NCBI GenBank assembly: GCA_963716365.1
Contig: OY970307.1
Coordinates: 2,320,349 to 2,384,348 of the forward strand
Length of the DNA: 64,000 bases
Direction: 5' to 3'
Origin: Candidatus Dormiibacterota bacterium
GTDB lineage: Bacteria; Chloroflexota; Dormibacteria; Aeolococcales; Aeolococcaceae
The first letter of the stretch is position 1; each line of letters starts with the position of its first letter. This document shows positions 524 through 64,000 of this stretch, in pieces. The translations under genes were made by a program, and so were the position numbers. Under the pieces are notes generated by a model. That model saw nothing but the letters and a program-made list of their open reading frames with translations, had not been told where the DNA came from and made no database searches.

Positions 524-1382
524 TCATACGGTGCCGGTCCCGGCGAGCCCTGCGGTGCCGAAGGCAACGATCGCCTCGGCTGCCCGTGCGAGCCCTTCCG
601 CGAGCGCGACGCTGAAGATCGCGTCGTCGGAGCGCATCGCCTCGGCGATATGCCCCAGAAAGCCGCCGGCCAGCGCGTCACCGGCGCCGGTGGGATCCAC
701 CACGGCCGGGACAGCCACGGCGGGCATCGCCACGAGCGTGTCAGCCGTGACGCATGCGGCTCCTTCCGGACCGTGCTTGACCACGACCGCCCGCAGACGG
801 CCTGCGCCGCAGAGCTGCGCGGCGGAGTTCCGCCAGTCGTCGCTGCCTGTCAGCGTGTTCAGCTCGGCGCCGGTGAGGAACAGGATGTCGATCTGCCGGA
901 TGACGGCGTTGACCTCCGCCCGCTGGTGCTCGATGAATTCGGTCATCGAATCGAGACCGATGACCCCCGCGCTCGACTGATCGATGACCGCGGCCTGCAG
1001 CGCCGGGGCCATGCTGCCGACGAAGAGCACGTCAGCGCGGCGGGATTGCTCAGACAGTGCCGGCTCCCAGAGCGGGTCGCACCCCGGCTCCGACGAACTC
1101 GTGCGACGTGACCCAGCGGTCGAAGTCGTGGACGGCGTGCCAGCGGAAGGTCGGCGACTCACTGACCACCATCCCGTCGAGGTGGATCGACGGGCGGGCG
1201 AGTATCCGGCGGTATTCGGCCACGGTGTCCGCGCCGACGATGCCGTTGACGTGGACCGGCGCGTAGCGCGACGCCGCGAGCGAGAAGTACACGGCCGAGC
1301 CTCCGAGCGCGTCGCGCCGACCGGCGGGTGTCGTCAGGTCGTCGCTGTGGAACGTCCCCGCGACGGCGACGTCCCAGGTCAC
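524..1382 (-). pseudogene. PfkB/ribokinase-family sugar kinase, disrupted by an apparent +1 frameshift near 1082-1100
   Basis: The N-terminal ORF 1050..1382 (GGSAVYFSLAAS...) and the C-terminal ORF 524..1162 (ADVLFVG...DPTGAGDALAGGFL, the PfkB signature) lie in different frames and overlap at 1050-1162. Their combined length of about 285 aa is typical for PfkB. Confidence 0.6.
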
Positions 1383-7766: not shown

Positions 7767-9163
<1,397 letters not shown>

Positions 9164-9167
<4 letters not shown>

Positions 9168-10508
9168 CGACCCCGCTGACCGCGGAGCCCACAGCGGTGC
9201 TGGGGCCAGGGGTCGCGGCAGCCCGGGAGGTCGCATCCCCTGCGTGGCTCGCGGCGCGCCGGCGCATCGCCTGGGACGCATACGAAGCGCTCCCGATGCC
9301 GTCGTCGCACAGCGATGAGGACTGGCGGCGCACCGACATCTCCGCACTCCATCTCGAGCGGTTCACGCCGCTGGAGACGGTGGATGCGGCCGTGCTCGAC
9401 GCGATGCGCGCGCAGCGCGACAGCGCCGCGCCGAACGCAGCGCTGATCTTCGACGGTCCCATCGAGACGATCATCGAGGGCGCTGACACGCTGCTCGCGC
9501 AGGGGATCATCGTGACCACGCTCGAGGAGGCCGCAACGGTCCATCCCGAGCTCGTGCAGCGCGCGCTCGCGGCGGTCCGTGTCGACGAGACCAAATTCAT
9601 CGCACTCTGGAACGCGCTGTGGCGCGGCGGCGCTTTCGTCTACGTCCCGCAGGGCGTCGAGGCGCTCGTCCCGGTGTGGATCGCGCACGCCGCATCCGGT
9701 AGCGACGTCGCGGTGTTTCCGACGACGGCAGTCCTCCTCGAAGAGGGTGCATCGCTCACGGTGATCGATGCCTACGCATCGCCTGCCGGCACCGATGCTG
9801 TGCTCAGCAACGCGGTGGTCGTGCTCTCCGCCGGGCGCGACGCCCGCCTCGACTACAACACGGTGCAGGAGTGGGGAGCCGGGGTGTGGCACATCGCGAT
9901 GCAGCGCACCTCGCTCGACGCCAACGCCAAGCTTCGCTTCACCGGGATCACGCTCGGCGCCCGCCTGCAGAAGGCGTGGTGGGAGGTGATGCTCAACGGG
10001 ATCGGCAGCGAGGCCGACATTTTCGGGATCTGCTTCGGCGACGGCACGCAGCACATCGACCACCAGTCGCTGCAGGCGCACGTCGGCGCCGAGACGCGCA
10101 GCAACCTCCTCCTCAAGGTGGCCGTTCGCGACCAGGCCCGCTCGGTCTACGGCGGGATGATCGACGTCGCGCCGACTGCGGTGCATGCCGACGGCTACGT
10201 CGCCAACCGCAACCTGCTGCTGAGCCAGGGCGCGAAAGCCGAACTCGATCCCGCGCCTCGAGATCCGCGCCAACGACGTGAAGTGCGGGCACGGCGCAAC
10301 CGCCGGCCACATCGATTCGGAGCAGCGCTTCTACCTGATGGCCCGCGGTGTTCCCCCGGACGAGGCGAGCTCGCTGATCGTGCGCGGGTTCATGGACGAC
10401 GTCCTCGACCGTGTGCCGCACCGCGGATTCGCGGAGCTCGCCGGCGCATTGCTGGACGCGGAGATCGCCGGCGCCTCTGTGGCCGGGGTCGCCGCAGCAG
10501 AGGCATGA
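9164..10508 (+). pseudogene. sufD: Fe-S cluster assembly protein SufD carrying an apparent +1 frameshift at 10241-10246; very likely a sequence error rather than a real pseudogene
   Basis: Frame A (9164 onward) reads ...NRNLLLSQGAKA. Frame B, ending at 10508, reads NSIPRLEIRANDVKCGHGATAGHIDSEQRFYLMARG, the SufD C-terminal motif. Removing one A from GCCGAACTCG restores AKADSIPRLEI. The start overlaps the sufB stop. Confidence 0.85.
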
Positions 10509-10846
10509 GCGACGGCTGGACCGACGTGGCCCGCGCGGGCGACATCCCACCTGGATGCGCTGCGCGTGTGGAGATCGACGACGTCCCGGTCGCCATCTTC
10601 AACGTCGGTGGGACCTTCTACGCACTGGACGACACCTGCAGCCACGCCGAGGCGTCGTTGAGCGAAGGCGACCTCGACATCGACCGCTGTGTCATCGAAT
10701 GCCCGCTCCATGGATCGAGCTTCGATCTCCGAACCGGCGACCCGCTGACGCTGCCGGCCGTCGAGCCGGTGCGCGTGCACCGCGTCGAGATCAATGCGGA
10801 CGGCGTGTTGCGAGTGGCGCTCGCCGATGAGGTCCCCGCGTCGTGA
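10505..10846 (+). CDS. Rieske [2Fe-2S] ferredoxin-like protein embedded in the suf operon
   Basis: MSDGWTDVARAGDIPPGCAARVEI...CSHAEASLSEGDL...IECPLHGSSFDLRTG carries the CxH...CxxH Rieske motifs. Its ATG overlaps the sufD stop (ATGA) and its stop overlaps the sufS GTG. Confidence 0.8.
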   Translation: MSDGWTDVARAGDIPPGCAARVEIDDVPVAIFNVGGTFYALDDTCSHAEASLSEGDLDIDRCVIECPLHGSSFDLRTGDPLTLPAVEPVRVHRVEINADGVLRVALADEVPAS

Positions 10847-20785: not shown

Positions 20786-22834
20786 TCAACTCGGCGGTGC
20801 GACGATCGGGACCGCTTGGTTGTAGCTCGTGTACGTGTCCGTCATGAAGTGCCCGGCCTCTTCCATCTCCACCTGGCGAACCCGCCCGGTGGCGTCGACC
20901 CAGAACGTGAACCAGGTTGGCGTTGAGAACTTGTTCCCGAAACTGGCGACGACCGTTGTCGGAACGCCCCCGACAGCCCCCTGACCAAGGATGTGCGCGT
21001 TGGTCAGCGGCTCGAAGAAATCCCAGGCGAATGACGGCACGATCAACTGCGTGAGGCCGGGCTCGGCATGCCATGGGCCCCCCGGACTGAGCTGCGTGTA
21101 CTGCGTGTTGCCGATGAAGATCGTCTTGCTGCTCCCCACCGACCAGGTGGACTTGTTTGGTGCGACGGACGAGTAGTCAGCGTCGATCGGCCCCGGATTC
21201 AGCACCTCGCTGTACTGGTACGCGGACAGCTCGTGCATGGCGGCCTGGAGCTGCGCAAGCAGGTGCGTCCCTGATGGCGCCGGCAGCGACGGGATCGTGA
21301 ACGACGCCTCGCCGCCCCCGGGGTTCAAGACGTCCACAGCAACGGTGTCGCCTGCCTTGATGGTGATGGTCGCCGTCCGGCACGTGTCCCCGCAGGAGAC
21401 GAGCTCCTTGTAGGCATTGTTCACCGCGATGTTGGCGAGAATCGATTTAGCGCCCGCAGTGCCGCCGATGGGCAGCACGTAGACGGTCGCCCTGTTCGGG
21501 CCCGGCAGGCCCGGCGAGAGGCTGAGACCGATCAGCACGCTTCCGGCCGGCCCGGCCATGGTCAACTCCCCCGCAGCCGGCAGCCCTGCTGTCGGCGACA
21601 GTGCCGCGGCATCCGCCGCCTGTTCCTCCGCGGCGGTGGGCGGCGCCGGGAATGACGCGAGCAGGGCGGCCGCACCGATGACGCATGCGGCGATCCCTGC
21701 TTCCACGCGCACGTGCGGCCGTCGGAGCCGCCACGCCATGACCGACAGCGGGAGCATGCACGCAACGAGGGCCATCTTTGCCAGGAGCACACGGCCGTAG
21801 TCGGTGCCGAACAGTGACTGCAGCGACCCGAGCTGCTCGATCGCCTCGAGACCACCCGCGACGACGGTGACCGCGAACGCCACGAGCGCGACCGGGGTGA
21901 AGCGCGTGATCAGCGTGCGCGCATCGGCCGATCGCCATCCGCCGGGCGGCCGCAGCGCTGCGAGCGCGCCGATCCCGCCCGCCCAGACACCGGCGGCAAG
22001 CAGGTGGACGGCGTCGAGCCCGACACCGAGCCACGCGGGCTGCACCCCCGCTGCATGGCCCGCGGCAGCCAGGAGCACGAGCGTCCCGGCCAGCAGCACC
22101 GGGAGCGCCCGCCAGCCACGCACGACCGCGATGAGCATCACCGCCTCGAGGACGAGGCGGGCGATGAGTACGGCACCCGACCATCCCGCCTCGAAGTAGG
22201 CCAGGTAGTTCGAGAGGCTGTGTCCGCCTGACGCCACGGTGGCCCCGGCCCAGACGACGACCAGCCCTGCTGACAGCGCGATGCTGGAAGCCCGAAACCC
22301 CGGCTTCACCCACGCGAGCGATGGTTGGCGGCGCGCGAGCCGGCTCATCAGGACCTGCCCGGTCAGGAAGAGCAGCGCCAGCGCTTCGACCCACTTGACG
22401 AGGCCGATGGCGATATCCGATGTCTGCGGGCCTGGAACCTGATTCGCCGCGTCGGCCGGCGACACCCCGGCCACACCGACATCGAACGTGAACGTCCCTG
22501 TGATGCGGTGGCCGTCGACCTCACTCACGGACACCCAGGTGACCGTGTAGACCCCGGGGACGTTGGTCTCGAGCGGCACCCGGATCTCCTCACCACTGTC
22601 GACCTCGCCCTTCCAGCTGCGGCCGCTCGGATCAACCACGGCCGCGGACGAGAGTTGGGGATTGAGGCTCTGGGTGAACTCCAGGACCACGATGCCCGGT
22701 GTCGTGCCCAGATGCGCGCCCGCCGCTGGAGAGGACGACCCGAGCAACGCGTGCGCCGACGCCGCGATCGGTATGGCCAATGCCGCGAGCACGGCGATCA
22801 GGAGCGCGATGAAGCGGCGGACTCCCCGTGTCAC
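20786..22834 (-). CDS. Copper-resistance CopC-CopD fusion protein (YcnJ-like) with a large C-terminal extracytoplasmic domain
   Basis: Signal peptide, then the CopC motif HALLGSSSPAAGAHLGTTPGIVVLEFTQSL, eight TM helices typical of CopD, and roughly 280 aa of extracytoplasmic extension. Confidence 0.7.
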   Translation of the reverse strand: MTRGVRRFIALLIAVLAALAIPIAASAHALLGSSSPAAGAHLGTTPGIVVLEFTQSLNPQLSSAAVVDPSGRSWKGEVDSGEEIRVPLETNVPGVYTVTWVSVSEVDGHRITGTFTFDVGVAGVSPADAANQVPGPQTSDIAIGLVKWVEALALLFLTGQVLMSRLARRQPSLAWVKPGFRASSIALSAGLVVVWAGATVASGGHSLSNYLAYFEAGWSGAVLIARLVLEAVMLIAVVRGWRALPVLLAGTLVLLAAAGHAAGVQPAWLGVGLDAVHLLAAGVWAGGIGALAALRPPGGWRSADARTLITRFTPVALVAFAVTVVAGGLEAIEQLGSLQSLFGTDYGRVLLAKMALVACMLPLSVMAWRLRRPHVRVEAGIAACVIGAAALLASFPAPPTAAEEQAADAAALSPTAGLPAAGELTMAGPAGSVLIGLSLSPGLPGPNRATVYVLPIGGTAGAKSILANIAVNNAYKELVSCGDTCRTATITIKAGDTVAVDVLNPGGGEASFTIPSLPAPSGTHLLAQLQAAMHELSAYQYSEVLNPGPIDADYSSVAPNKSTWSVGSSKTIFIGNTQYTQLSPGGPWHAEPGLTQLIVPSFAWDFFEPLTNAHILGQGAVGGVPTTVVASFGNKFSTPTWFTFWVDATGRVRQVEMEEAGHFMTDTYTSYNQAVPIVAPPS

Positions 22835-24140: not shown

Positions 24141-25438
24141 GGCGCGCAAGTCTGACACGCGCGTATCACGCGATCGCCTTCTCGAACTTGGTCTCGCTGC
24201 GAAACGGCCCGACCACGGCGGCACGCAGGCCTGAGGAGAGCAGCCTTCCGGCAAGCGCGCTCACCTGGGCCGCGTCGACCGAACTCGAGGCGGCGGACGA
24301 GTTCCTCGGGCTCGAGGATGTGTCCCTGGAGGAGCAGCTGCTGCCCCGTGTACTCGCAGAGCGCCGACGTGCTCTCGAGTCCGAGGAGGAGCCGGCCCTT
24401 GGTGTACTCGATGGCCTTGGTCAGTTCGGCGGCGCTCACCGGCTCCTCCGCGAGCTTGCGGAGCTCGGCGATCGCGGCCTCGAGCGCGGTCGCCGCCCGG
24501 CGCGGCTCGCATGCGAGGCCGATACCGAGCACCCCGGAGTCCGACAGCCTCGTCATGAACGAGTGCACGTCGTAGACGAGGCCGCGATGCTCGCGCAGCT
24601 CGAGGAAGAGCCGGCTCGACATGCCCTCGCCGAGGATGACGTTGAGGATGTCGGCAACATGGCGGTCGGGGTCGTTGTACGACGGAGCCCGGACGCCGAC
24701 CAGGATGTTCGCCTGCTCCGCGCTGCGCCTGATCACGCGAAGCCGCGGCCCTGTCGGCGCGGTGGCAGGGATCGCCGCCTCCGGCGTCGCTCGCGCGGCC
24801 GTCGACCACGGCCCGATCGCCTCGTTGATCATCGCCACGGCGTGCGCCGTCTCGAACCCGCCGGCGACGCTGATCACGAGAGTCGAGGGGAGGAGGTGCT
24901 GCTCGAGATGGACCCTGCAGTCCTCCCCGGTGAACCCGGAGACGGTCTCCTCGCGGCCGGCGACATCCCACCCGAGTGGGTGGTCGGGCCACATCACCTC
25001 GTCGAAGAGGATCTGCACGTAGTCCTGAGGATTGTCCTGGTACATCCGCAGCTCTTCGATGACGACCTGACGCTCCTTGACCACCTCGTCCGGGTCCAGC
25101 GCGGGGCTCAGGAGCATGTCGCCGAGCACCGACACGGCGATGCCGAGCTTGTCAGCGGGCACCCGCGTCCAGAACACGGTGGCCTCACGATCGGTCGCGG
25201 CGTTGAGCACGCCGCCGACACCCTCGATGGCCTCGCTGACGTCCCGCGCGGTCGGGTAACGCGCGCCGCCCTTGAAGACCATGTGCTCGACGAAGTGGCT
25301 GATCCCACTGTTGGACAGATGCTCGTTCCGTGACCCCACGCCGACCATGAACGCGACCGCGACCGAGGCACGGCCTGGGAGCGGGACAGCGGTGAGCCTC
25401 GTCCCTCCCGCGAGGGACTCGACGGCGAATCCGGTCAG
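24137..25438 (-). CDS. M16-family (insulinase-like) zinc peptidase; the homologous N-terminus extends upstream of the first ATG to a CTG at 25438 that abuts the jag stop
   Basis: [10 protein letters not shown] is the HxxEH zinc motif. The upstream in-frame peptide [27 protein letters not shown] matches the conserved M16 N-terminal strand, and no ATG, GTG or TTG is available in that frame. Confidence 0.6.
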
Positions 25439-27655: not shown

Positions 27656-28000
27656 GTCTGTGCCCTACGCGCCAGGTGGACCGAAGCAGTCCCGAGCGCG
27701 GATGCAAGCGCCGCTCGCAGCTCGGCAAACGGCATCTCGCTAGCGGTGCCCGGCAGATTCACGACAAGGTCGAAGTCTGGGCCACTCCAGGAGAAGTGGG
27801 GCGATCGCGGCGCGAAGCCGGCGCTTTGCCCGGTTGCGACGGACCGCTCCGCCGGCGTTCGGGACGGCGAACGCCACACGTGACGCTTCGTCGCTGCCTT
27901 CGATCGCTCGGAGGCGGATCACTCCTGAACGGCCCTCACTGCCAGCTTCTCGCACCACGGCAATCCGGCGTCGCCCGGAAAGGCGATGCCGCCGGTTCAT
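27652..28000 (-). pseudogene. rnpA: RNase P protein component RnpA with an apparent +1 frameshift at 27772-27777; likely a sequence error
   Basis: The N-terminal frame (ATG 28000) reads [12 protein letters not shown]...VRRNRAKRRLRAAIAPLLLEW and then stops early. The conserved C-terminus (DLVVNLPGTASEMPFAELRAALASAL) continues in the +1 frame, ORF 27652..27879. The ATG overlaps the rpmH stop. Confidence 0.75.
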
Positions 28001-28143: not shown

Positions 28144-28371
28144 GGCCGTCTCCCCGAGACATTGATCGCGTCGGGGGCGCTCAAGGCGCCGCTGAGCCCG
28201 ACGGGGTTGCCCGGCGAGTATATCAAGGCGGCAGGCCCCGACCCCTCAGACGTGACGCGCTCGCGCCGCTTGTGAGTGGAGCCGCGCATTGTTAAACTCC
28301 GCAGGCTGCAGCGGGAGCGGGAGTTCTTCCATTCGTCTCACCAAGCCCCCCGGCCACCAGCGGCCATGCAT

Positions 28372-28403
28372 TTATCCACTTCTGTGCACAAGTTGTGGAC
28401 AAC
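28372..28403 (+). promoter_or_regulatory. DnaA-box cluster upstream of dnaA (TTATCCACT, TTGTGCACA, TTGTCCACA)
   Basis: Three DnaA-box matches or near-matches within 32 nt in the rpmH-dnaA spacer. Confidence 0.55.
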
Positions 28404-28521
28404 TGCGCTGTGTCGGAATGGCGAACCCGAGGAACGAGTGGATCGAACAGTGGCCGGAGTCGTTGGTGACCCGATGGCGCGGCTGGAACCCGTTACAGAC
28501 GGTGTGAGCTCGACGGCGAGC

Positions 28522-29874
28522 ATGGACCCGCAGCAGCTGTGGCAGGTCGCCCAGGAGGAGCTGCGCTTCCAGGTGGTCAAACCCGGCTACGAAGCGTGGC
28601 TTGCCAACGCGGTCCTCGTGGATTCCGACGGGCATACCTTCACCGTCGGCGTGCCGACCATTTTCGCCAGGGACTGGGTGAGCGAGCGCTACGTGCCGAT
28701 CATCCGCGAGACGCTGTCCGGAGTCCTCGGCCGCGACTGCGAGGTCGTGATCACCGTCGATCCCGAAGCGTCGCCGCCACCGGAGGCGCCGCCGCATCTT
28801 CCCGACCCGACATACGCGCACGTCAGCGAGCCGGAGGATGGCGCCAACAACTCGCGGCTCAATCCCAACTTCACCTTCAGCACATTCGTCGTCGGCAACT
28901 CGTCGCGTTTCGCGCATGCGGCGTGTCGCGCCGTCGCCGAAGCGCCGGGGAAGGCCTACAACCCGCTGTTCCTGTACGGCGGTGTCGGTCTCGGCAAGAC
29001 CCATCTCATGCACGCGATCGGACACGCGGTGCGCGAGACGCATCGCAACGCGAAGGTCGCGTATGTCACGTCCGAGAAATTCATGAACGAGATGGTCGCG
29101 TCGATCGTCGAGAACCGGCCCGCGGAATTTCGGATGCGGTATCGCGGTGTCGATGTCCTGCTTATCGACGACATCCAGTTCCTCGCCGGCAAGGACCACA
29201 CCCGCGAGGAGTTCTTTCACACCTTCAACGCGCTGCAGGAATTCCAGAAGCAGATCGTGGTGAGCAGCGACCGGCCACCCAAGGACATTCCAACGCTCGA
29301 GGACCGTCTGCGGAGCCGCTTCGAAGGCGGGTTGATGGCGGACATCCAGCCGCCCGATTTCGAAACCAGGCTTGCGATTCTCAACACCAAGCTCGGGCCG
29401 TACAGCAAGCTCGTCCCGGACGAGGTCTGCTCGTTCATCGCGCACCGCATTCAGAAAAACATCCGCGAGCTCGAGGGCGCGCTCATCCGCGTGCTCGCGC
29501 ACGCGTCGATCAACGGCCAGCAGATCACGCTCGAGGCGGCGCAACAAATCCTCAAGGACGTCATCCCCGTCCACGACTCCGCGCCGCTCAGCATCGAGAC
29601 CATTCAGAACTCGGTCGCGGCGCACTACGGCATCTCGGTCGAGGAGATGAAGGGAAAGCGTCGCGACAAGAACATCGTGTTCCCGCGTCAGGTCGCGATG
29701 TACCTGATCCGCGAGGAAACCAAGTCGTCGTTGCCGGTGATCGGCACAGCGTTCGGTGGGCGCGACCACACCACAGCCTTGCACGCCATCGAGAAGATCA
29801 CCGAGCTCATGCGCGAGGACGTGCGTCTTCAGGGTGAGGTGCGCGCCATCCGCGAGCACCTCCACAGCCGTTGA
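28522..29874 (+). CDS. dnaA: Chromosomal replication initiator DnaA
   Basis: MDPQQLWQVAQEELRFQ at the N-terminus, Walker A GGVGLGKTHL, box VII, and a C-terminal DNA-binding domain. An upstream start at 28474 is possible. Confidence 0.9.
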   Translation: MDPQQLWQVAQEELRFQVVKPGYEAWLANAVLVDSDGHTFTVGVPTIFARDWVSERYVPIIRETLSGVLGRDCEVVITVDPEASPPPEAPPHLPDPTYAHVSEPEDGANNSRLNPNFTFSTFVVGNSSRFAHAACRAVAEAPGKAYNPLFLYGGVGLGKTHLMHAIGHAVRETHRNAKVAYVTSEKFMNEMVASIVENRPAEFRMRYRGVDVLLIDDIQFLAGKDHTREEFFHTFNALQEFQKQIVVSSDRPPKDIPTLEDRLRSRFEGGLMADIQPPDFETRLAILNTKLGPYSKLVPDEVCSFIAHRIQKNIRELEGALIRVLAHASINGQQITLEAAQQILKDVIPVHDSAPLSIETIQNSVAAHYGISVEEMKGKRRDKNIVFPRQVAMYLIREETKSSLPVIGTAFGGRDHTTALHAIEKITELMREDVRLQGEVRAIREHLHSR

Positions 29875-30131
29875 CAACCCTGTGTGCGCGCAGCGCGCAT
29901 GGATGTGGACAATGTGCACGACCGGTGACGCGGTGCACAACCGGTGGACAACAACTGCCACTTCCGCACAGGCCATACATGCCTTCGAGGCCGATGTGAG
30001 ATCGACCGCGCGGTTGTCCCCCATGTCCCCACTACTACATCGTCTACTGATCTCTAAACTCTGGAAGTCATACTCATTGAGTCTGGGTGAAACCCGATGA
30101 CAACGCACCACCGTCCGGAGAGGAGCCGTCC
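29875..30131 (+). promoter_or_regulatory. Probable oriC in the dnaA-dnaN spacer: DnaA boxes at 29905-29913, 29943-29951 and 30013-30021, plus an AT-rich DNA-unwinding element at about 30030-30085
   Basis: TTGTCCACA (reverse complement of TGTGGACAA) and TTGTCCACC, followed by a locally AT-rich stretch ctactacatcgtctactgatctctaaactctggaagtcatactcattgag in a 70% GC genome. Confidence 0.6.
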
Positions 30132-31248
30132 ATGAAAGCAACCGTCTCGTCCTCCACGCTGAGTGGTGCCCTTGGACTCGTCTCCAGGGCCGTCTCCCCC
30201 AGGTCGACGCTGCCGGTCCTCAGCAACGTGCTGCTGGAGACAGCAGCCGAGGGTCTTCGCGTCACCGCGACCAACCTCGATCTCACGATCACCGTCGTCG
30301 TGCCGGCCACCGTGCTCGAGGAAGGCCGGACGACGGTTCCGGCGCGACTCCTCGGGGAGTTCGTCTCGTCACTTGGTGACGCTCCGTGCTCCATGGAACT
30401 GGATCCCTCGACGCAGGTGCTCAAGCTCACGGGCGGCGTGCACCGAGCGAACCTCCACGGCATCGACGCGGTGGAGTTCCCGCCGCTGCCTGCGAGGGAC
30501 ACGGACACCGTCATCGAGGTCGACGCTCCAACCCTGCAGGGCGCGATCGCACAGACGGTGATGGCCGCCAGCTCGGACGAGGCTTCGCCGGTGCTCACCG
30601 GTGTGCTCCTGCAGATCGAGGGCAACCGGCTGACCATGGCGGCGACAGACCGGCATCGCCTGGCGGTGAAGACGATCGACGTCACAGTGCACGGCACTCC
30701 GCCGGTCACGTCGGTCATCGTCCCGTCGCGGCATCTCACCGAAGTCGCACGTGCGGTGAACCCGAACCGTCCCACCGTCGGTATCGCCTTCGCGCACGCA
30801 CGCAACCAGGTCTTCTTCACGCTCAAGGACGTCGAGATCTCCTCGCGCTTGATCGAGGGCACGTATCCCAACTACTCGCAGGTGATTCCCGGAGAGTCGA
30901 CGACCACCGTCAGCCTCTCGACGGCATCATTGCTCCGCGAGGCGAAAACCGCGGCAGTGCTTGCGCGCGACGCGGCGAACCCGGTGCGTCTTCGTATCGG
31001 CGACGGCACGCTGACACTGCTCGCCCAGACAGCCGAGGTCGGCGACGATGAGGCACCACTCACCGCGACGGTGAAAGGCGACGACGTGCAGATCGCGTTC
31101 AACGCGCGATACATGCTGGACGCGCTGTCGGCGCTCGAACTCCGACGAGGTGATCCTGTCGTTCAACGGCTCACTGCAACCGGGAGTCATACGGCCGGTC
31201 GGCAGCGACGACTACCTCTGCATCATCATGCCGGTGCGCGTCGCATAG
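30132..31248 (+). pseudogene. dnaN: DNA polymerase III beta sliding clamp DnaN with an apparent +1 frameshift at 31137-31142; likely a sequence error
   Basis: Frame 1 reads ...FNARYMLDALSALELRRGDPVV and then runs into junk. The +1 frame from 31141 reads SDEVILSFNGSLQPGVIRPVGSDDYLCIIMPVRVA*, the canonical DnaN C-terminus. Removing one A from CTCGAACTCC restores ALDSDEVILSF. Confidence 0.85.
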
Positions 31249-31294
31249 ACGGAAGCCGCGCGGACTTCGGGATGCAGGAGTGGGCGCACGTCGC

Positions 31295-31582
31295 TCACAT
31301 TGCCGAGAAGCGGATGCGACGCACCAGGTCCTGGCCGACAACTCGGTTCAGCGCATCGATGACACGGGGCGCGTCCATCTGCAGCTGGTGCGCGAGCGCG
31401 GTGTTCGCACAGGCGATGAGCAGCACTCCCCGGTCGAGACGCTCCGCGCGGCAGAGCGACGCGAGACTGTCGCCGACGACTTCTGCAAGCGCCAGGCGCA
31501 GTCGTTCCTCGCGGACCTGACCGCGCACACCGAGCCCGCGCAACGCCGGGTCGATGAGGTCGGAGAGGCGTTCCTCGGTCAT
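31295..31582 (-). CDS. DUF721-family protein (the recF-downstream RNA-binding-like protein)
   Basis: 95 aa in the conserved position after recF; its start overlaps the recF stop. Confidence 0.6.
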   Translation of the reverse strand: MTEERLSDLIDPALRGLGVRGQVREERLRLALAEVVGDSLASLCRAERLDRGVLLIACANTALAHQLQMDAPRVIDALNRVVGQDLVRRIRFSAM

Positions 31583-32739
31583 GCGCGCTCGTCCTGCGTG
31601 ACGACGCCCGCGCGGACGGTGTGATACAGGACCTCGGCAAAATCGGCCACGCCGGAGAACGGCTCGGCGGTGGTCACGAACACCTGGTTGTTGCCGCCGG
31701 CGGCAAGGAGCGTGAGCAGTTGCGCGCGGCGTCCGGGGTCGAGCTCGCTGAGCACATCGTCAAGCAGGATGACCGGAGCGACGCCGGCCGTGTCCTGGAG
31801 GTAGCGCACCTCGGCAAGCTTGCATGCAAGCACGATGCTGCGTTGCTGTCCCTGCGACGCTGAACCACGCGCGGCGCGATCATCGAGGTCGATCGCGACG
31901 TCGTCGCGGTGCGGGCCCGCAAGCGTGATGCCACGCGCGATCTCCTCGGCGGCGCGCAGGCGCAGCGTGTCGAGCAGCGCCTGCTCCGCGGCTGCGAGGT
32001 CATCAGGGATCGCGTCGCTGTGCGCGGGCGCGTAGCGCAAGGCGATGTGCTCGCGCCGGCCGCTCAGGTCGTGGAGCGCAGCGGCCGCCAGCGGAGCGAG
32101 CGCGACGACCAACCGCGTGCGCGCTCGCGCCAACCATGCGCCGTGACGAGCAAGCTCGCTCGTGAAACCGTTGAGCGCGTCGCGACCACTGCCACCAGCG
32201 CGCAACTGATGCAGCAATGCGTTGCGCTGCTCGAGCACGCGACGGTACCGGGACATGTGCTCGGCGGATTGCGGATCCGTCTGCGCAAGGATGACGTCGA
32301 GAAATCTGCGCCGGCCCTCGGGGCCGCCGCGCACGAGCGCAAGGTCCTCAGGCCAGAAGAGCACGACGGGACACACCCCGAGGACGGAGCGCGCAGCGCG
32401 CGGTTTCCCATCGATGATCGCCGTACGAGTCACCCTGCCCGACACGGGGTCACGCTGAAACCGCGCTGCGAGCGTGACGTTCGCCGGTGGCCGCTCGATG
32501 TCGGCCTCAGCCAGCCCCTCGTCGCGGCCCCACAGCAGCAGATCGCCGGTCGTCGTCGCTCGCGGGGACCGCGTCAGCGCAAGCGTCGCGATGGCCTCCA
32601 GCAGGTTCGTCTTTCCCTGCGCGTTCAGACCGTGGATGATGTTGAGGCCCGGACCGAAGCGCACCGTCGCTTCCGCGTAGTTGCGAAACGCATGGACGCG
32701 CAGACGCGTGATCGTGCACCTGGGGACCGACGCGCTCAC
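31579..32739 (-). CDS. recF: DNA replication and repair protein RecF
   Basis: Walker A GLNAQGKTNLLEAI, the ABC signature and Walker B ILLDDVLSELD. Length 386 aa. Confidence 0.9.
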   Translation of the reverse strand: MSASVPRCTITRLRVHAFRNYAEATVRFGPGLNIIHGLNAQGKTNLLEAIATLALTRSPRATTTGDLLLWGRDEGLAEADIERPPANVTLAARFQRDPVSGRVTRTAIIDGKPRAARSVLGVCPVVLFWPEDLALVRGGPEGRRRFLDVILAQTDPQSAEHMSRYRRVLEQRNALLHQLRAGGSGRDALNGFTSELARHGAWLARARTRLVVALAPLAAAALHDLSGRREHIALRYAPAHSDAIPDDLAAAEQALLDTLRLRAAEEIARGITLAGPHRDDVAIDLDDRAARGSASQGQQRSIVLACKLAEVRYLQDTAGVAPVILLDDVLSELDPGRRAQLLTLLAAGGNNQVFVTTAEPFSGVADFAEVLYHTVRAGVVTQDERA

Positions 32740-32793
32740 GCGCGAGCGCCGTTTGCCATCGATGCGATCAGCTCGGCGATACGACGTGTCGCG

Positions 32794-33885
32794 TCAGGGC
32801 GTGCGGCAGCCCGAACCGCCTCGCGCATCGCGGCGAGAGTTCGCCGAGCCCGGGACAGCCAACTCGGTCACGGCATCGATGAGCTGCTCCACGTGCGGCA
32901 CGTAGCGGCCGGCGCCGATGTCGACCACCCACTCGACGTTGCCGCGCTCCTGGCCCGGCAGGTACCAGACGAGCAGGAGCGGAAGTCCGCAGCAGAGTGC
33001 TTCGGCGATGGTTCCCGGTCCGGCTTTGGACACGACGACATCGCTGGCGCGCATCCACTGCGGCATGTCGGTGACGTAGCCGAGCACGCGCACCTCGCGC
33101 CCGGCCGCCGTGCGCAGCCCGGCGAGCGCGGAATGTGCGCGCTCGTTGCGGCCGCAGATGACCACGAGGTCAAGATCGATGCTGGTGGCCGCGATTGCCT
33201 GCGCGTTGCGCACGAGGCCGCCCGATCCGTCGGCGCCCCCGCAGACGAGAGCGACGAAGCTGTCAGGGCGCAATCCGAGCCGGCTGCGGAGCGCGGCGAT
33301 GCCGGCGGGATCGCTGGGGAGATCGGTGAACCGCCGGTCCACCGCGAGCCCGAGGTCGTAGCAGCGCGAGGCCGGGATGCCCGCGCGCCGGCAGCGTTCG
33401 AACCCGCCGGGCGACGGCACCACCACCGCGTCGACGTCGGGGCATGCCCACGAGGCATGGATGTCGACGAGGTCGGTGATGACCGTGATGACTGGAATCC
33501 GCCGCTCCTGGCCCTGCACGGCCCGCACGCTGATGTGGTTGAGGAGCGGGTGGAACGACACCACACAATCGGGTCGGAGCCGGCGGATGGCGTCGTCGAC
33601 CGCATTGGTCACCGAGCGCAGCACGGTGCGCTCGAGCGCGCGCACCGCGGGCCGGCTGTTGGTGGCGTGGTACAGGCCGCCCCAGAGCCATCGGGCATGT
33701 CGCGTGATCGGTCCGTAAAGGCCGGCGGTCCCGCCGATGATCCGCTGCGGCGCCGCCGCGAACGGGTCGAGGATGGTGATCTCGAAGTCGCCGGGCGCGG
33801 TGTCGGCCATCTGGCGCTCCACCGCCGTGGCCGCGGCTCGGTGGCCACCGCCGGTGTCGGCGATGAGAAAGAGCAGGCGCCTCAT
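32794..33885 (-). CDS. GT28-family glycosyltransferase (MGDG-synthase/UgtP-like diacylglycerol glycosyltransferase)
   Basis: MRRLLFLIADTGGGHRAAATAV at the N-terminus and the C-terminal GT-B nucleotide-sugar region ...VSKAGPGTIAEALCCGLPLLL. Confidence 0.7.
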   Translation of the reverse strand: MRRLLFLIADTGGGHRAAATAVERQMADTAPGDFEITILDPFAAAPQRIIGGTAGLYGPITRHARWLWGGLYHATNSRPAVRALERTVLRSVTNAVDDAIRRLRPDCVVSFHPLLNHISVRAVQGQERRIPVITVITDLVDIHASWACPDVDAVVVPSPGGFERCRRAGIPASRCYDLGLAVDRRFTDLPSDPAGIAALRSRLGLRPDSFVALVCGGADGSGGLVRNAQAIAATSIDLDLVVICGRNERAHSALAGLRTAAGREVRVLGYVTDMPQWMRASDVVVSKAGPGTIAEALCCGLPLLLVWYLPGQERGNVEWVVDIGAGRYVPHVEQLIDAVTELAVPGSANSRRDARGGSGCRTP

Positions 33886-35708: not shown

Positions 35709-36987
35709 CGCCGCCCTTGACCTCGATGCTCGACTGACGATCCTTGGCAAGAGTTGCAACCGCGGTGGTCGCCTTGTCCAAGGATCGCTGGGTTTCGGTG
35801 TATGTCCCGAGGATGTCGCCATCGCGAAGCAGGATGATCCCTGCCTCGTTGGGGGTCTGCACAACCACCGAGCCACTCACGTGCTCCTCGGAGAGGTACT
35901 CCAGCAGCGCGTCGAGGTTGACGAACCGGCCGAGCAGACCGTTGTAGAGATACGGCGACGTGAAGAGTTGCGCCAGCGCGGTGACCGTCTCCCCGTCGAG
36001 CTCGATGACATCGATGACGCCATCTCCCGCATCCATGTGGCGGCGGATCTGCAGGAACGCCGACTCGCCCTGAACAGCGGTGCCGTTGCTGCACAGCGCC
36101 TGCAGCGCCTGACCGTCGTTCAGGAGGATGACGCCGGAATACCCGGTGCCGCTGAGGTTCACATAACCGGTGTGTCGATCCGACCGCAGCGTCCGCAGCA
36201 GACGTGGGAAATCGACGAACGCGCTCTTCAGTCCCTCGTAATGGGCCCGGCCCGAGGGGAGTGGGTACACCCGCACCGGCTGAACAGTAGACGATGCCGC
36301 ACCCGCAGATGTGGTTACCGGGCGGTCCGGAGACGCTGCCGGAGCCGGCGCGGACGGTGCCGGGGTCGCGGTCGGGGCCGGCGAATACGAAATCGGCTCC
36401 GGAGCGGGGATCACCGCCGGTGCCGGCTGGTACGCCGCCGCCGCTGGTGCCGGCTCTGGCTCGGGCTCTGGTTCCGGCTCGGGTTCGGGTTCCGGCTCCG
36501 GCTCCGGCTCGGGCTCCGAGTGGGCGGCCGCGGCGGGAGCATCCGAATCAGCGGCCGGTGTGGACATCGCATAAGCGGGCTCTTCGATCGGCGCGGGAAG
36601 GCTCGCCGCCGGGGCCGTGTAGGCGTCGGAGGTCGAGTACGCGGGTGTCGTGTCCGGCCAGGACGAGGCGCCGGTGGATGCCGAGGCTGCTGGGGCGTGA
36701 CGGCTCTCTGCCGCTGCGATCAACTCCGCAGGCGAGGCCTTGATCGTCTCCTCGGCAGGCAGCTTGGCACGCGGGTCGAACTGGTACGACCCGTCGTCCC
36801 AGCCCAGGGCGTCGATGACCACCTCCTCGCCTTGTCCACTCGGTCCGCTGGCGTGGAACAGGTGCCCGAAGAGGAAGTACAGCGAGCAACTGTCGCCGCC
36901 GTTGTCGATGGTCAGCGTGCCGGTGGCCCGTTCCGCCTGCATCGATTGCAGCAGCGTCGCGAGTCCGCCGTCACGAAGAGAACCCTG
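35656..36987 (-). CDS. DUF4388-domain protein with a Pro/Ala-rich linker containing a perfect (EP)11 repeat and a C-terminal pair of DUF4388-like modules
   Basis: GTG start at 36987 with GGAG upstream. N-terminal DUF4388 (LRDGGLATLLQSMQAERATGTLTIDNGGDSCSLYFLFGHLFHASGPSGQGEEVVIDALGWDDGSYQF). The upstream 5-prime part of ORF 35656..37632 would read through the divergent response-regulator gene and is rejected. Confidence 0.5.
   Translation of the reverse strand, partial: QGSLRDGGLATLLQSMQAERATGTLTIDNGGDSCSLYFLFGHLFHASGPSGQGEEVVIDALGWDDGSYQFDPRAKLPAEETIKASPAELIAAAESRHAPAASASTGASSWPDTTPAYSTSDAYTAPAASLPAPIEEPAYAMSTPAADSDAPAAAAHSEPEPEPEPEPEPEPEPEPEPEPAPAAAAYQPAPAVIPAPEPISYSPAPTATPAPSAPAPAASPDRPVTTSAGAASSTVQPVRVYPLPSGRAHYEGLKSAFVDFPRLLRTLRSDRHTGYVNLSGTGYSGVILLNDGQALQALCSNGTAVQGESAFLQIRRHMDAGDGVIDVIELDGETVTALAQLFTSPYLYNGLLGRFVNLDALLEYLSEEHVSGSVVVQTPNEAGIILLRDGDILGTYTETQRSLDKATTAVATLAKDRQSSIEVKGGDGTIAAIDVDAALNRAY
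36455..36520. repeat. Hexanucleotide microsatellite (GGCTC[CG])n encoding (EP)11 inside the DUF4388 gene
   Basis: ggctcgggctctggttccggctcgggttcgggttccggctccggctccggctcgggctccgag. Confidence 0.7.
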
Positions 36988-41640: not shown

Positions 41641-42462
41641 GTGCACGGCGAGGCGCTCGAAGTCCTCGGCACGCTGCCCGACGGGTGCGCCGGCCTCGTC
41701 TACGTCGATCCGCCGTTCAACACCGGCGGCCCGCGCCGGGGGTCGCGCACCACGACCACGCTGGATGCGGAGTCGACACGTCTCGGGTTCGCGGGGCGCC
41801 ATTACCGGACGGAGCGGAAGGATGGCGCGCGTTTCGACGATCGTTTCGACGATTACCTGGCATGGCTGCGGCCGCGACTCATCGAAACGCGGCGCATCCT
41901 CGCGGCCCACGGCAGCCTCTATTTCCACATCGACCCGCGCGAGTCGCACTACTGCAAAGTGCTGCTCGACGAGATCTTCGGGCGCGAGTGCTTCCTCAAC
42001 GAGGTGGTGTGGGCGTATGACTACGGCGCGCGCACGAAACGGCGCTGGCCCGCGAAGCACGATGTCATCCTCGTGTACGTGCGTGACCCGGGGCGCTATC
42101 ACTTCGACGCGAGCGACGTCACACGCGAGCCGTACATGGCGCCGCGTCTGCAGACACCCGAGCGCGCGGCGCGCGGCAAGTTGCCCACCGACGTCTGGTG
42201 GCACACGATCGTGCCGACGACGTCGCGCGAGCGCACGGGCTATCCGACGCAGAAACCGCTCGGCATCCTGCGCCGAATCGTCGTCGCGTCATCGCAACCC
42301 GGCGACCTGGTGGTCGACTGGTGTGCCGGCAGCGGGACCACCGGTGTCGCGGCGGCCGAGCTGGGAAGGCGGTTCCTGCTCGTGGACAATCAGGCGGACG
42401 CGATCGCGGTGATGCGCACCCAACTCGCCGGCGTGCCCGGCCTGAAGGTCGTCACTCGCTGA
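41641..42462 (+). CDS. Beta-class DNA methyltransferase (N6-adenine or N4-cytosine; M.HinfI/CcrM-type domain order), orphan
   Basis: GTG start. Motif IV VYVDPPFN is N-terminal, YPTQKP sits mid-protein and motif I DWCAGSGTTGVAA is C-terminal. No restriction endonuclease is adjacent. Confidence 0.75.
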   Translation: MHGEALEVLGTLPDGCAGLVYVDPPFNTGGPRRGSRTTTTLDAESTRLGFAGRHYRTERKDGARFDDRFDDYLAWLRPRLIETRRILAAHGSLYFHIDPRESHYCKVLLDEIFGRECFLNEVVWAYDYGARTKRRWPAKHDVILVYVRDPGRYHFDASDVTREPYMAPRLQTPERAARGKLPTDVWWHTIVPTTSRERTGYPTQKPLGILRRIVVASSQPGDLVVDWCAGSGTTGVAAAELGRRFLLVDNQADAIAVMRTQLAGVPGLKVVTR

Positions 42463-63167: not shown

Positions 63168-64000
63168 CTACGCGTGGTCCTCGACGCCGAGGATCAGCTT
63201 CCCGAAGTTCTCGCCGCGAAAGAGCCGCAGGAGGGTGTCCGGGAATGATTCGAGCCCGGTGATGATGTCCTCGAGGGAACGCAGCCGGCCCTCGGCGATC
63301 CATCCCGCCATCTCGGCTCCAGCCTCCTGGTAGCGCGCGGCGAAGTCGAAGACGAGAAACCCCTCCATACGCGCCCGGTCCACGAGCAGCGCCATGTAGT
63401 TCGCCGGTCCCCGGGCGGGGCCCTCGTTGTTGTACTGCGAGACCGAGCCACAGATGACGATACGGGCGTGGCGCGCAAGTCGCGTCAGTGCGGCGTCGAG
63501 CACGTCACCCCCGACGTTGTCGAAATACACGTTGATGCGGTCCGGGCACTGCTCGCGCAGCGCGATCCGGACGTCCTCGCTCTTGTAATCGATCGCCGCA
63601 TCGAAACCGAGCTCATCGACGATGAACCGGCACTTCTCCGGGCCGCCGGCGATGCCGATCACGCGGCAGCCTTTGATCTTCGCGATCTGTCCGACCGCCA
63701 TGCCCACCGCGCCCGCAGCGCCGGACACGACGACGGTGTCTCCTGCCACGGGTTTGCCGATGTCGAGCAGGCCGAAATATGCCGTCATGCCCGTCATTCC
63801 GAGCACGCTGAGATACGTCGTTAGCGGCGCCAGGTCGGTGGAGACACGAGTTCACCCCGGATCCGTCACTGAGCGCGTACGCCTGGACGCCGAAGCTGCC
63901 GGTCACGTGGTCACCGGCGGAGAAGCCCGGGTGCCGCAACTCGACCACCTCCCCGGCGCCGAGCGCCCGCATGACCTCGCCGATCCCGACGGGCGGGATG
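63168..64000 (-). pseudogene. NADP-dependent medium-chain dehydrogenase/reductase (YncB/CurA-like), partial; apparent +1 frameshift at 63848-63853
   Basis: The C-terminal frame (from 63806) reads LSVLGMTGMTAYFGLLDIGKP...VSGAAGAVG. The N-terminal frame (ORF 63613..63972) reads VVELRHPGFSAGDHVTGSFGVQAYALSDGSGVNS. Removing one A from GTGAACTCG restores ...DGSGVTRVSTDLAPLTTYLSVLGMTG. Confidence 0.7.

Follow-up and report, generated by a model that had tools for sequence, protein, structure and literature searches.

The frameshift that interrupts dnaN in the deposited sequence is, in our view, very likely an assembly artefact caused by a motif-linked Nanopore consensus error at GA(C/G)TC (referred to as GASTC), with the real gene encoding an ordinary beta clamp of 371 aa. 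The gene was studied in a stretch of DNA of 64,000 nucleotides (referred to as the window). Comparison with related genomes revealed that the error is specific to both the motif and the sequencing technology, and that it is stochastic per site and lineage-dependent.

A single extra adenine interrupts the dnaN reading frame

The open reading frame covering dnaN extends from 30087 to 31520 on the plus strand and encodes either 477 aa from the GTG at 30087, which was the choice of the ORF lister, or 462 aa from the likelier start codon, the ATG at 30132. Residues 1–336 are encoded in the original frame (30132..31139, plus strand), with Pfam matches to DNA_pol3_beta, DNA_pol3_beta_2 and the first 88 positions of DNA_pol3_beta_3. 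The deposited frame reads ...FNARYMLDALSALELRRGDPVVQRLTATGSHTAGRQRR and is then Arg/Ser-rich up to 31520; more specifically, past ...FNARYMLDALSALE it yields LRRGDPVVQRLTATGSHTAGRQRR and about 120 more Arg/Ser-rich residues. The first-pass annotation had described this run as part of a false 477-aa ORF, and re-reading of the frames led to the same result. The false read-through part (31140..31520, plus strand) overlaps the opposite-strand dciA gene, and beyond residue 336 the ATG-started protein gave zero Pfam matches.

The remainder of the clamp was found in the +1 frame (31141..31248, plus strand), where the annotation had also placed it. In this frame, residues 337–371 read SDEVILSFNGSLQPGVIRPVGSDDYLCIIMPVRVA (SDEV...MPVRVA*) and are followed by a TAG stop at 31246–31248. 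Joining of the two frames extended the DNA_pol3_beta_3 match from positions 2–88 of 121 (70 bits in the deposited ORF) to positions 2–121 of 121 (97 bits), and the repaired 371-aa clamp displayed all three domains of the family (PF00712, 1–120/120; PF02767, 2–116/116; PF02768, 2–121/121). In a tblastn comparison of the repaired clamp with the window, residues 1–336 matched at 100 %. Its best protein match, P0001, is equally 371 aa long (99 % identity over 100 % of P0001) and reads ...ALSALDSDEVILSFNG..., and the closest proteins in a large protein collection were Candidatus Dormibacterota clamps. The repaired protein thus has the same length as its closest relatives, and it has the conserved C-terminal ...MPVRVA. 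With one base removed, the gene has the domains, the length and the position after dnaA of a DnaN family member, and its true product is almost certainly a beta clamp of the ordinary type, 371 aa long and with ...ALSALDSDEVILSFNG...MPVRVA at its end. The loss had initially been put at 36 residues; the tail itself comprises 35, and a count of 36 is reached only with the altered junction residue included (D336 read as E).

Alignment to relatives pinned the shift, which had been suspected near 31137–31142, to one extra A within dnaN codon 336. At 31138..31139 (plus strand) the window has AA where relatives have a single A, turning GACTC into GAACTC (hexamer 31137–31142). Six contigs encoding P0001 read GCGCTCG-ACTCC at this position in the DNA alignment versus GCGCTCGAACTCC in the window, and all short-read-type relatives carried GCGCTCGACTCC. 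The extra A was missing from loci L001–L006, L009, L010 and L036 as well as from L007 and L090, while L089 carries it, as does L038 at the orthologous site. No further lesions were found in dnaN, and no second dnaN was found in the 64-kb window. Read in the +1 frame, the 105-nt tail showed 6–13 synonymous and 0 non-synonymous differences from nine relatives, and these same differences were all non-synonymous when read in frame 0.

Genomic neighbourhood of dnaN

The dnaA gene (28276–29874) lies directly upstream of dnaN. On the other side, dciA (PF05258; 31295–31582, minus strand) is followed by recF (31579–32739, minus strand), and both genes (31295..32739) converge on dnaN. Across 28276–33885, in the region of the origin, dnaA-dnaN on the plus strand therefore faces dciA-recF-glycosyltransferase on the minus strand, an order kept in related Dormibacterota loci, so that recF converges on dnaN instead of trailing it.

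In L001 (1691–2302), L003 and L004 (ca. 88 % identity), a minus-strand gene for a 203-aa DUF6198 membrane protein stands between dnaN and dciA. This gene is missing from the window (31249–31294), L007, L089 and L090 by a deletion of ca. 570 bp that left short remnants of both ends. Further away, a short imperfect repeat of CCGGCTC / GGGTTC units (36436–36505) is located inside a large minus-strand ORF; it differs from L009 by several indels, with 18 extra bases corresponding to six codons, and probably encodes a variable Pro/Glu-rich linker.

Assemblies of the same strain disagree at GASTC

An exact-protein look-up with the window RecF retrieved two ENA contigs, L089 (ERZ25039518 contig_18829, 1.9 Mb) and L090 (ERZ25039482 contig_12266, 1.3 Mb, from another sample), each of which is 99.9 % identical to window positions 21577–42740 (ca. 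21 kb). In L089, which carries the extra A, the clamp is called as 462 aa. L090 is devoid of the extra A, but has a GA[A]CTC insertion of its own at window position 30896/7, and the call for its clamp is 306 aa long. Among the window, L089 and L090, differences occur at 24 positions, about 21 of which fall in GASTC, a motif that makes up 1 % of the alignment columns. These GASTC differences consisted either of an A in place of the first G (GACTC/AACTC or, on the other strand, GAGTC/GAGTT) or of a duplication of the A, and roughly a fifth to a quarter of the GASTC sites were hit per assembly in this 21-kb three-way comparison. No differences among the three assemblies occurred at GAATC or GATTC, which ruled out GANTC as the affected motif.

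The extra A is also missing from a Logan contig with 99.5 % identity to the window (L007), which shows 10 differences from it, 9 of them in GASTC. This contig is error-prone too, because a homopolymer-type deletion at its positions 896–899 (GGG versus GGGG at window positions 30354–30357) cuts its own dnaN call to 284 aa. Near-identical Logan contigs originate from the runs ERR11561019 and ERR12036781. We infer that the window sequence derives from Nanopore-only metagenome assemblies of a Candidatus Dormibacterota bacterium or is almost identical to them, the sequencing platforms of the window and of the Logan runs both being presumed.

G-to-A type changes at the first G of GA(C/G)TC were private to the window at 28295, 29722, 30057, 35755 and 39319, and shared by the window and L089 at 28849, 31340 and 42422. 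The change at 29722 turns a GAG codon (E) of DnaA into AAG (K). Such G-to-A changes are probably false SNPs with the same origin as the A-duplication.

The same duplication damages other genes in the window

Six further genes in the window are broken or altered by the same error, although for the last of them this attribution is only probable. On the minus strand, a PfkB-family kinase gene carries GAACTC at 1095..1100 (site 1096), and removal of one A merges pieces of 199 and 269 codons into a 374-codon frame. On the plus strand, sufD carries GAACTC at 10241..10246 (site 10242), resulting in its false fusion to the downstream Rieske gene; removal of one A extended the SUFBD_core match from 4–186/232 (150 bits) to 4–232/232 (242 bits). 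The false sufD plus Rieske [2Fe-2S] fusion is represented by a 613-aa ORF (9005–10846), within which the Rieske start lies near 10505.

The other four sites are all on the minus strand. Removal of one base at 24282 (GAACTC, 24281..24286) restores the C-terminus of an M16 peptidase. In rnpA the lesion (27772..27777, site 27773) has the rarer form GAGTC to GAAGTC, and the repaired RnpA matches Ribonuclease_P over 1–107/109; the extra A of both genes is missing from L009, L089 and L090. A GAGTTC at 32837..32842 (site 32840) affects the C-terminus of an MGDG_synth-type glycosyltransferase (32794–33885). Its extra base is missing from L089 and L090, and the repaired frame runs on until it overlaps the start of recF, as it does in L001 and L089 (382 aa). 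Finally, a GAGTTC at 63848..63853 (site 63851) interrupts a Zn-dehydrogenase-like oxidoreductase, and its repair gives a frame of at least 276 codons instead of 227, with a gain of positions 57–108/108 of ADH_N_2. This break is probably the same artefact.

Relative to L009, which is the nearest match in the species-representative collection as well as the nearest short-read relative (93 % identical), the isolated one-base insertions of the window were located at 24282, 27773, 31138 and 32840, all of them in the GASTC motif. With other short-read loci as reference, one more isolated insertion was noted at a gene boundary, where the window has an additional G (26212). A GC3 phase scan for frameshifts found the lesions at 1095, 10241 and 24281, while this approach misses shifts close to gene ends (27773, 31138, 32840). 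The hexamers at 825, 6587, 11776, 51662 and 58205, which were also flagged by the scan, are natural, and 'repairing' them would disrupt intact ORFs.

The window shows no global depletion of GACTC, with 84 GASTC sites left in it. The ratio of TCGAACTC to TCGACTC amounted to 1.0 in the window, 0.78 in long-read loci and 0.33 in short-read loci, which is a weak shift, and such simple motif counts are not decisive because only a fraction of the sites is hit.

The insertion recurs in long-read assemblies only

The recurrence of the lesion was examined across 80 dnaN loci from species-representative genomes. Twenty of these were 'MFD....bin' MAGs with Flye-style contig names, and the 60 others were short-read-style assemblies (k141, k127 and NODE names), including Illumina MAGs of the same project. 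The MFD MAGs are Nanopore-only assemblies made with Flye and one Medaka round using the r1041 sup g615 model (PMC12313526). A one-base dnaN insertion was present in 7 of the 20 Microflora Danica long-read MAGs versus none of the 60 others. Six of these seven frameshifted genes showed GACTC turned into GAACTC (or, read on the opposite strand, GAGTC turned into GAGTTC), at four different sites: the duplication in L038 coincides exactly with the window site, and five other MFD MAGs are hit at other GACTC sites.

When dnaN and its flanks were compared between long-read and short-read loci, 26 of 116 isolated one-base insertions fell at GA(C/G)TC versus 0 of 47 deletions. In a control comparison of the short-read loci with one another, neither insertions (0 of 72) nor deletions (0 of 95) fell at this motif. 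In terms of sequence examined, these counts correspond to 26 GASTC insertions in 247 kb of long-read loci versus none in 462 kb of short-read loci. The same orthologous sites were hit in different species, as illustrated by GCCGGAG[T]TCAGGCG in five MAGs. Rates varied with lineage, with 3–4 GASTC insertions per 13 kb in L038, L065, L069 and the window, and none in the long-read loci L015, L022, L031, L034, L063 and L070.

Two long-read loci, L008 (ERZ25039468 contig_49154) and L063, contained 32 and 15 one-base insertions, respectively, in ca. 13 kb outside GASTC (e.g. GTGCA[T]GCTG), and L008 has a frameshift in its dnaN gene, four codons downstream from the window site. These non-GASTC insertions suggest low coverage or other error-prone motifs.

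Possible origin of the miscalls

The error very likely arises from systematic miscalling of GA(C/G)TC in two ways, with either the first G being called as A (GACTC to AACTC) or the A being duplicated (GACTC to GAACTC). In dnaN, the duplication at 31138 leaves the final 35 codons in the +1 frame, while frame 0 stays open as far as 31520. We infer that GASTC is modified in the organism, most likely as N6-methyladenine (6mA) on both strands, and that this modification is not modelled by the basecaller and polisher. The altered signal might then be decoded as AACTC or GAACTC, with the consensus keeping the extra base at some sites. The miscalls are thus probably caused by base modification at GASTC, m6A being the likeliest type, and this origin is favoured because the error is both organism-specific and motif-specific, as modification would give. 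Methylated motifs, GANTC included, have been described as places of clustering for Nanopore assembly errors, which become fewer with methylation-aware models (PMC12710330; PMC12392509). Our literature search for GAGTC-specific Nanopore errors returned nothing specific, and among the published methylation-linked errors, which are mostly substitutions, we did not find a report of A-duplication at GASTC.

The same artefact could also arise from unmodified DNA if the basecaller or polisher mishandled the k-mer context around GACTC, and the confinement of the error to a short sequence and to long-read assemblies is indeed in line with this. However, the rates differ strongly among lineages of the same project (0 versus 3–4 per 13 kb), and the long-read contigs L008 and L063 have insertions in quite different contexts. 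Moreover, the G-to-A spectrum agrees with published methylation-linked errors in R10 data, for which G-to-A is the dominant motif-linked substitution (bioRxiv 10.64898/2026.01.14.699587). An error of context alone fits the lineage specificity less well than modification does, and we regard it as unlikely.

Whether GA(C/G)TC is a genome-wide modified motif (probably m6A) in this and several other Dormibacterota lineages seems to us an evenly balanced question; its writer could then be a stand-alone methyltransferase, as part of a CcrM-like or orphan epigenetic system. Genome-wide modification of GA(C/G)TC would leave the artefactual nature of the frameshift unchanged. Judging from its sequence, a beta-class N6/N4 DNA methyltransferase with a DPPF motif (41641..42462, plus strand; PF01555, E = 7e-39), encoded ca. 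10 kb from dnaN, could be a candidate writer of the GASTC modification. Among enzymes of solved structure, the best matches were M.RsrI (1e-23) and, for the C-terminal part only, CcrM (3e-15), with residues 200–266 alone aligning to CcrM (6pbd). An assignment of this enzyme to the CcrM type was not supported, the NCBIfam CcrM equivalog scoring 68 bits versus a cut-off of 830. The methyltransferase gene is flanked by genes for a peroxiredoxin-like protein and an acyl-CoA dehydrogenase, and no nuclease gene adjoins it.

Genuine insertion and recoding

Alternatively, the extra A could be real and reflect a recent frameshift, a pseudogene or a population variant, leaving the organism with an altered clamp C-terminus or with no clamp. 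The insertion is shared by the window and a second long-read assembly (L089), which speaks against the artefact reading and, taken alone, would be compatible with a real variant. However, the beta clamp is an essential protein and this dnaN is the sole copy within the window, the divergence of the tail is purely synonymous, and the insertion is missing from the same-strain assembly L090 and from L007. In addition, the identical A-duplication would also 'inactivate' further genes of the 64-kb window, including rnpA and sufD, and it is not credible that one real genome would lose dnaN, rnpA and sufD together by an identical A-duplication in one pentamer. Other Nanopore MAGs, furthermore, are hit at different GACTC sites of dnaN, and short-read MAGs never. 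A pseudogene specifically was rejected, with no relaxed constraint past the lesion (0 non-synonymous versus 6–13 synonymous differences), no other lesion and no second copy in the window. We consider a real insertion of this kind highly improbable.

A real insertion from which a full-length clamp is still made, by programmed +1 ribosomal frameshifting or transcriptional slippage, would accord with the perfect conservation of the downstream frame and with the use of recoding by replisome genes such as dnaX, but it is effectively refuted because the shift is not conserved, being missing from all 60 short-read relatives, L090 and L007 and lying at different dnaN positions, always following GACTC, in other long-read MAGs; moreover, CTC GAA CTC CGA permits no +1 re-pairing and constitutes no slippery or hungry-codon site, there is neither an in-frame stop nor an upstream Shine-Dalgarno-like stimulator (GCG CTC GAA CTC CGA CGA), and a run of two A residues would not suffice for transcriptional slippage.

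Significance of the error

The frameshift itself carries no biological weight, and the beta clamp of the organism is almost certainly normal. The same miscall nevertheless disrupts or changes many genes across Dormibacterota MAGs built from Nanopore reads only, and some of these MAGs are now in use as species representatives. In the window, the damage extends to at least seven genes in 64 kb, the essential dnaN and rnpA among them, in addition to false G-to-A "SNPs". Errors of this kind lead to inflated pseudogene counts, false fusions (such as sufD-Rieske), false amino-acid changes and mimicked strain variation. The pattern of GACTC to GAACTC or AACTC is simple enough for screening and correction, and it hints indirectly at a modified DNA motif in the uncultured phylum Dormibacterota.

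Comparison with known systems

The repaired gene is indistinguishable from DnaN (PF00712, PF02767, PF02768), whereas the deposited version has its third domain cut at 88 of 121 positions. Programmed frameshifts are known from prfB (+1 at CUU UGA C) and dnaX (–1 at A AAA AAG), and the picture shared with them, that of an essential gene with its conserved end in another frame, is superficial. In contrast to those cases, the position of the shift tracks a DNA motif and a sequencing technology here, and it comes with no slippery sequence, stimulator or conservation.

Among DNA methyltransferases, the beta-class adenine enzymes of the CcrM / M.HinfI type recognize GANTC, and the type IIS systems PleI and MlyI are GAGTC-specific. 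GASTC is a subset of the former motif and equals the latter read on both strands. The enzyme encoded in the window likewise belongs to the beta class (PF01555), with a DPPF motif and no adjacent nuclease, as in the CcrM/M.HinfI type; it differs from CcrM in that its similarity is confined to the C-terminal 67 residues.

The closest parallel lies in the methylation-associated Nanopore errors reported for GATC, GANTC, CCWGG and restriction-modification motifs. Like here, those errors are tied to one short motif and to long-read-only assemblies, they hit a fraction of the motif copies with a G-to-A spectrum, and they make assemblies of the same strain disagree, with false SNPs and broken genes as a result. 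They differ in that the motif here is GA(C/G)TC, with no errors seen at GAATC or GATTC, and in that the modification is presumed here. Moreover, the frameshifting A-duplication is prominent here, whereas the papers stress substitutions. The dnaN 'feature' thus belongs to a known class of modification-linked Nanopore errors in which its motif (GASTC) and its outcome (A-duplication) are unusual, and what is new here is its cause, a recurrent and technology-specific duplication of the A in GACTC/GAGTC.
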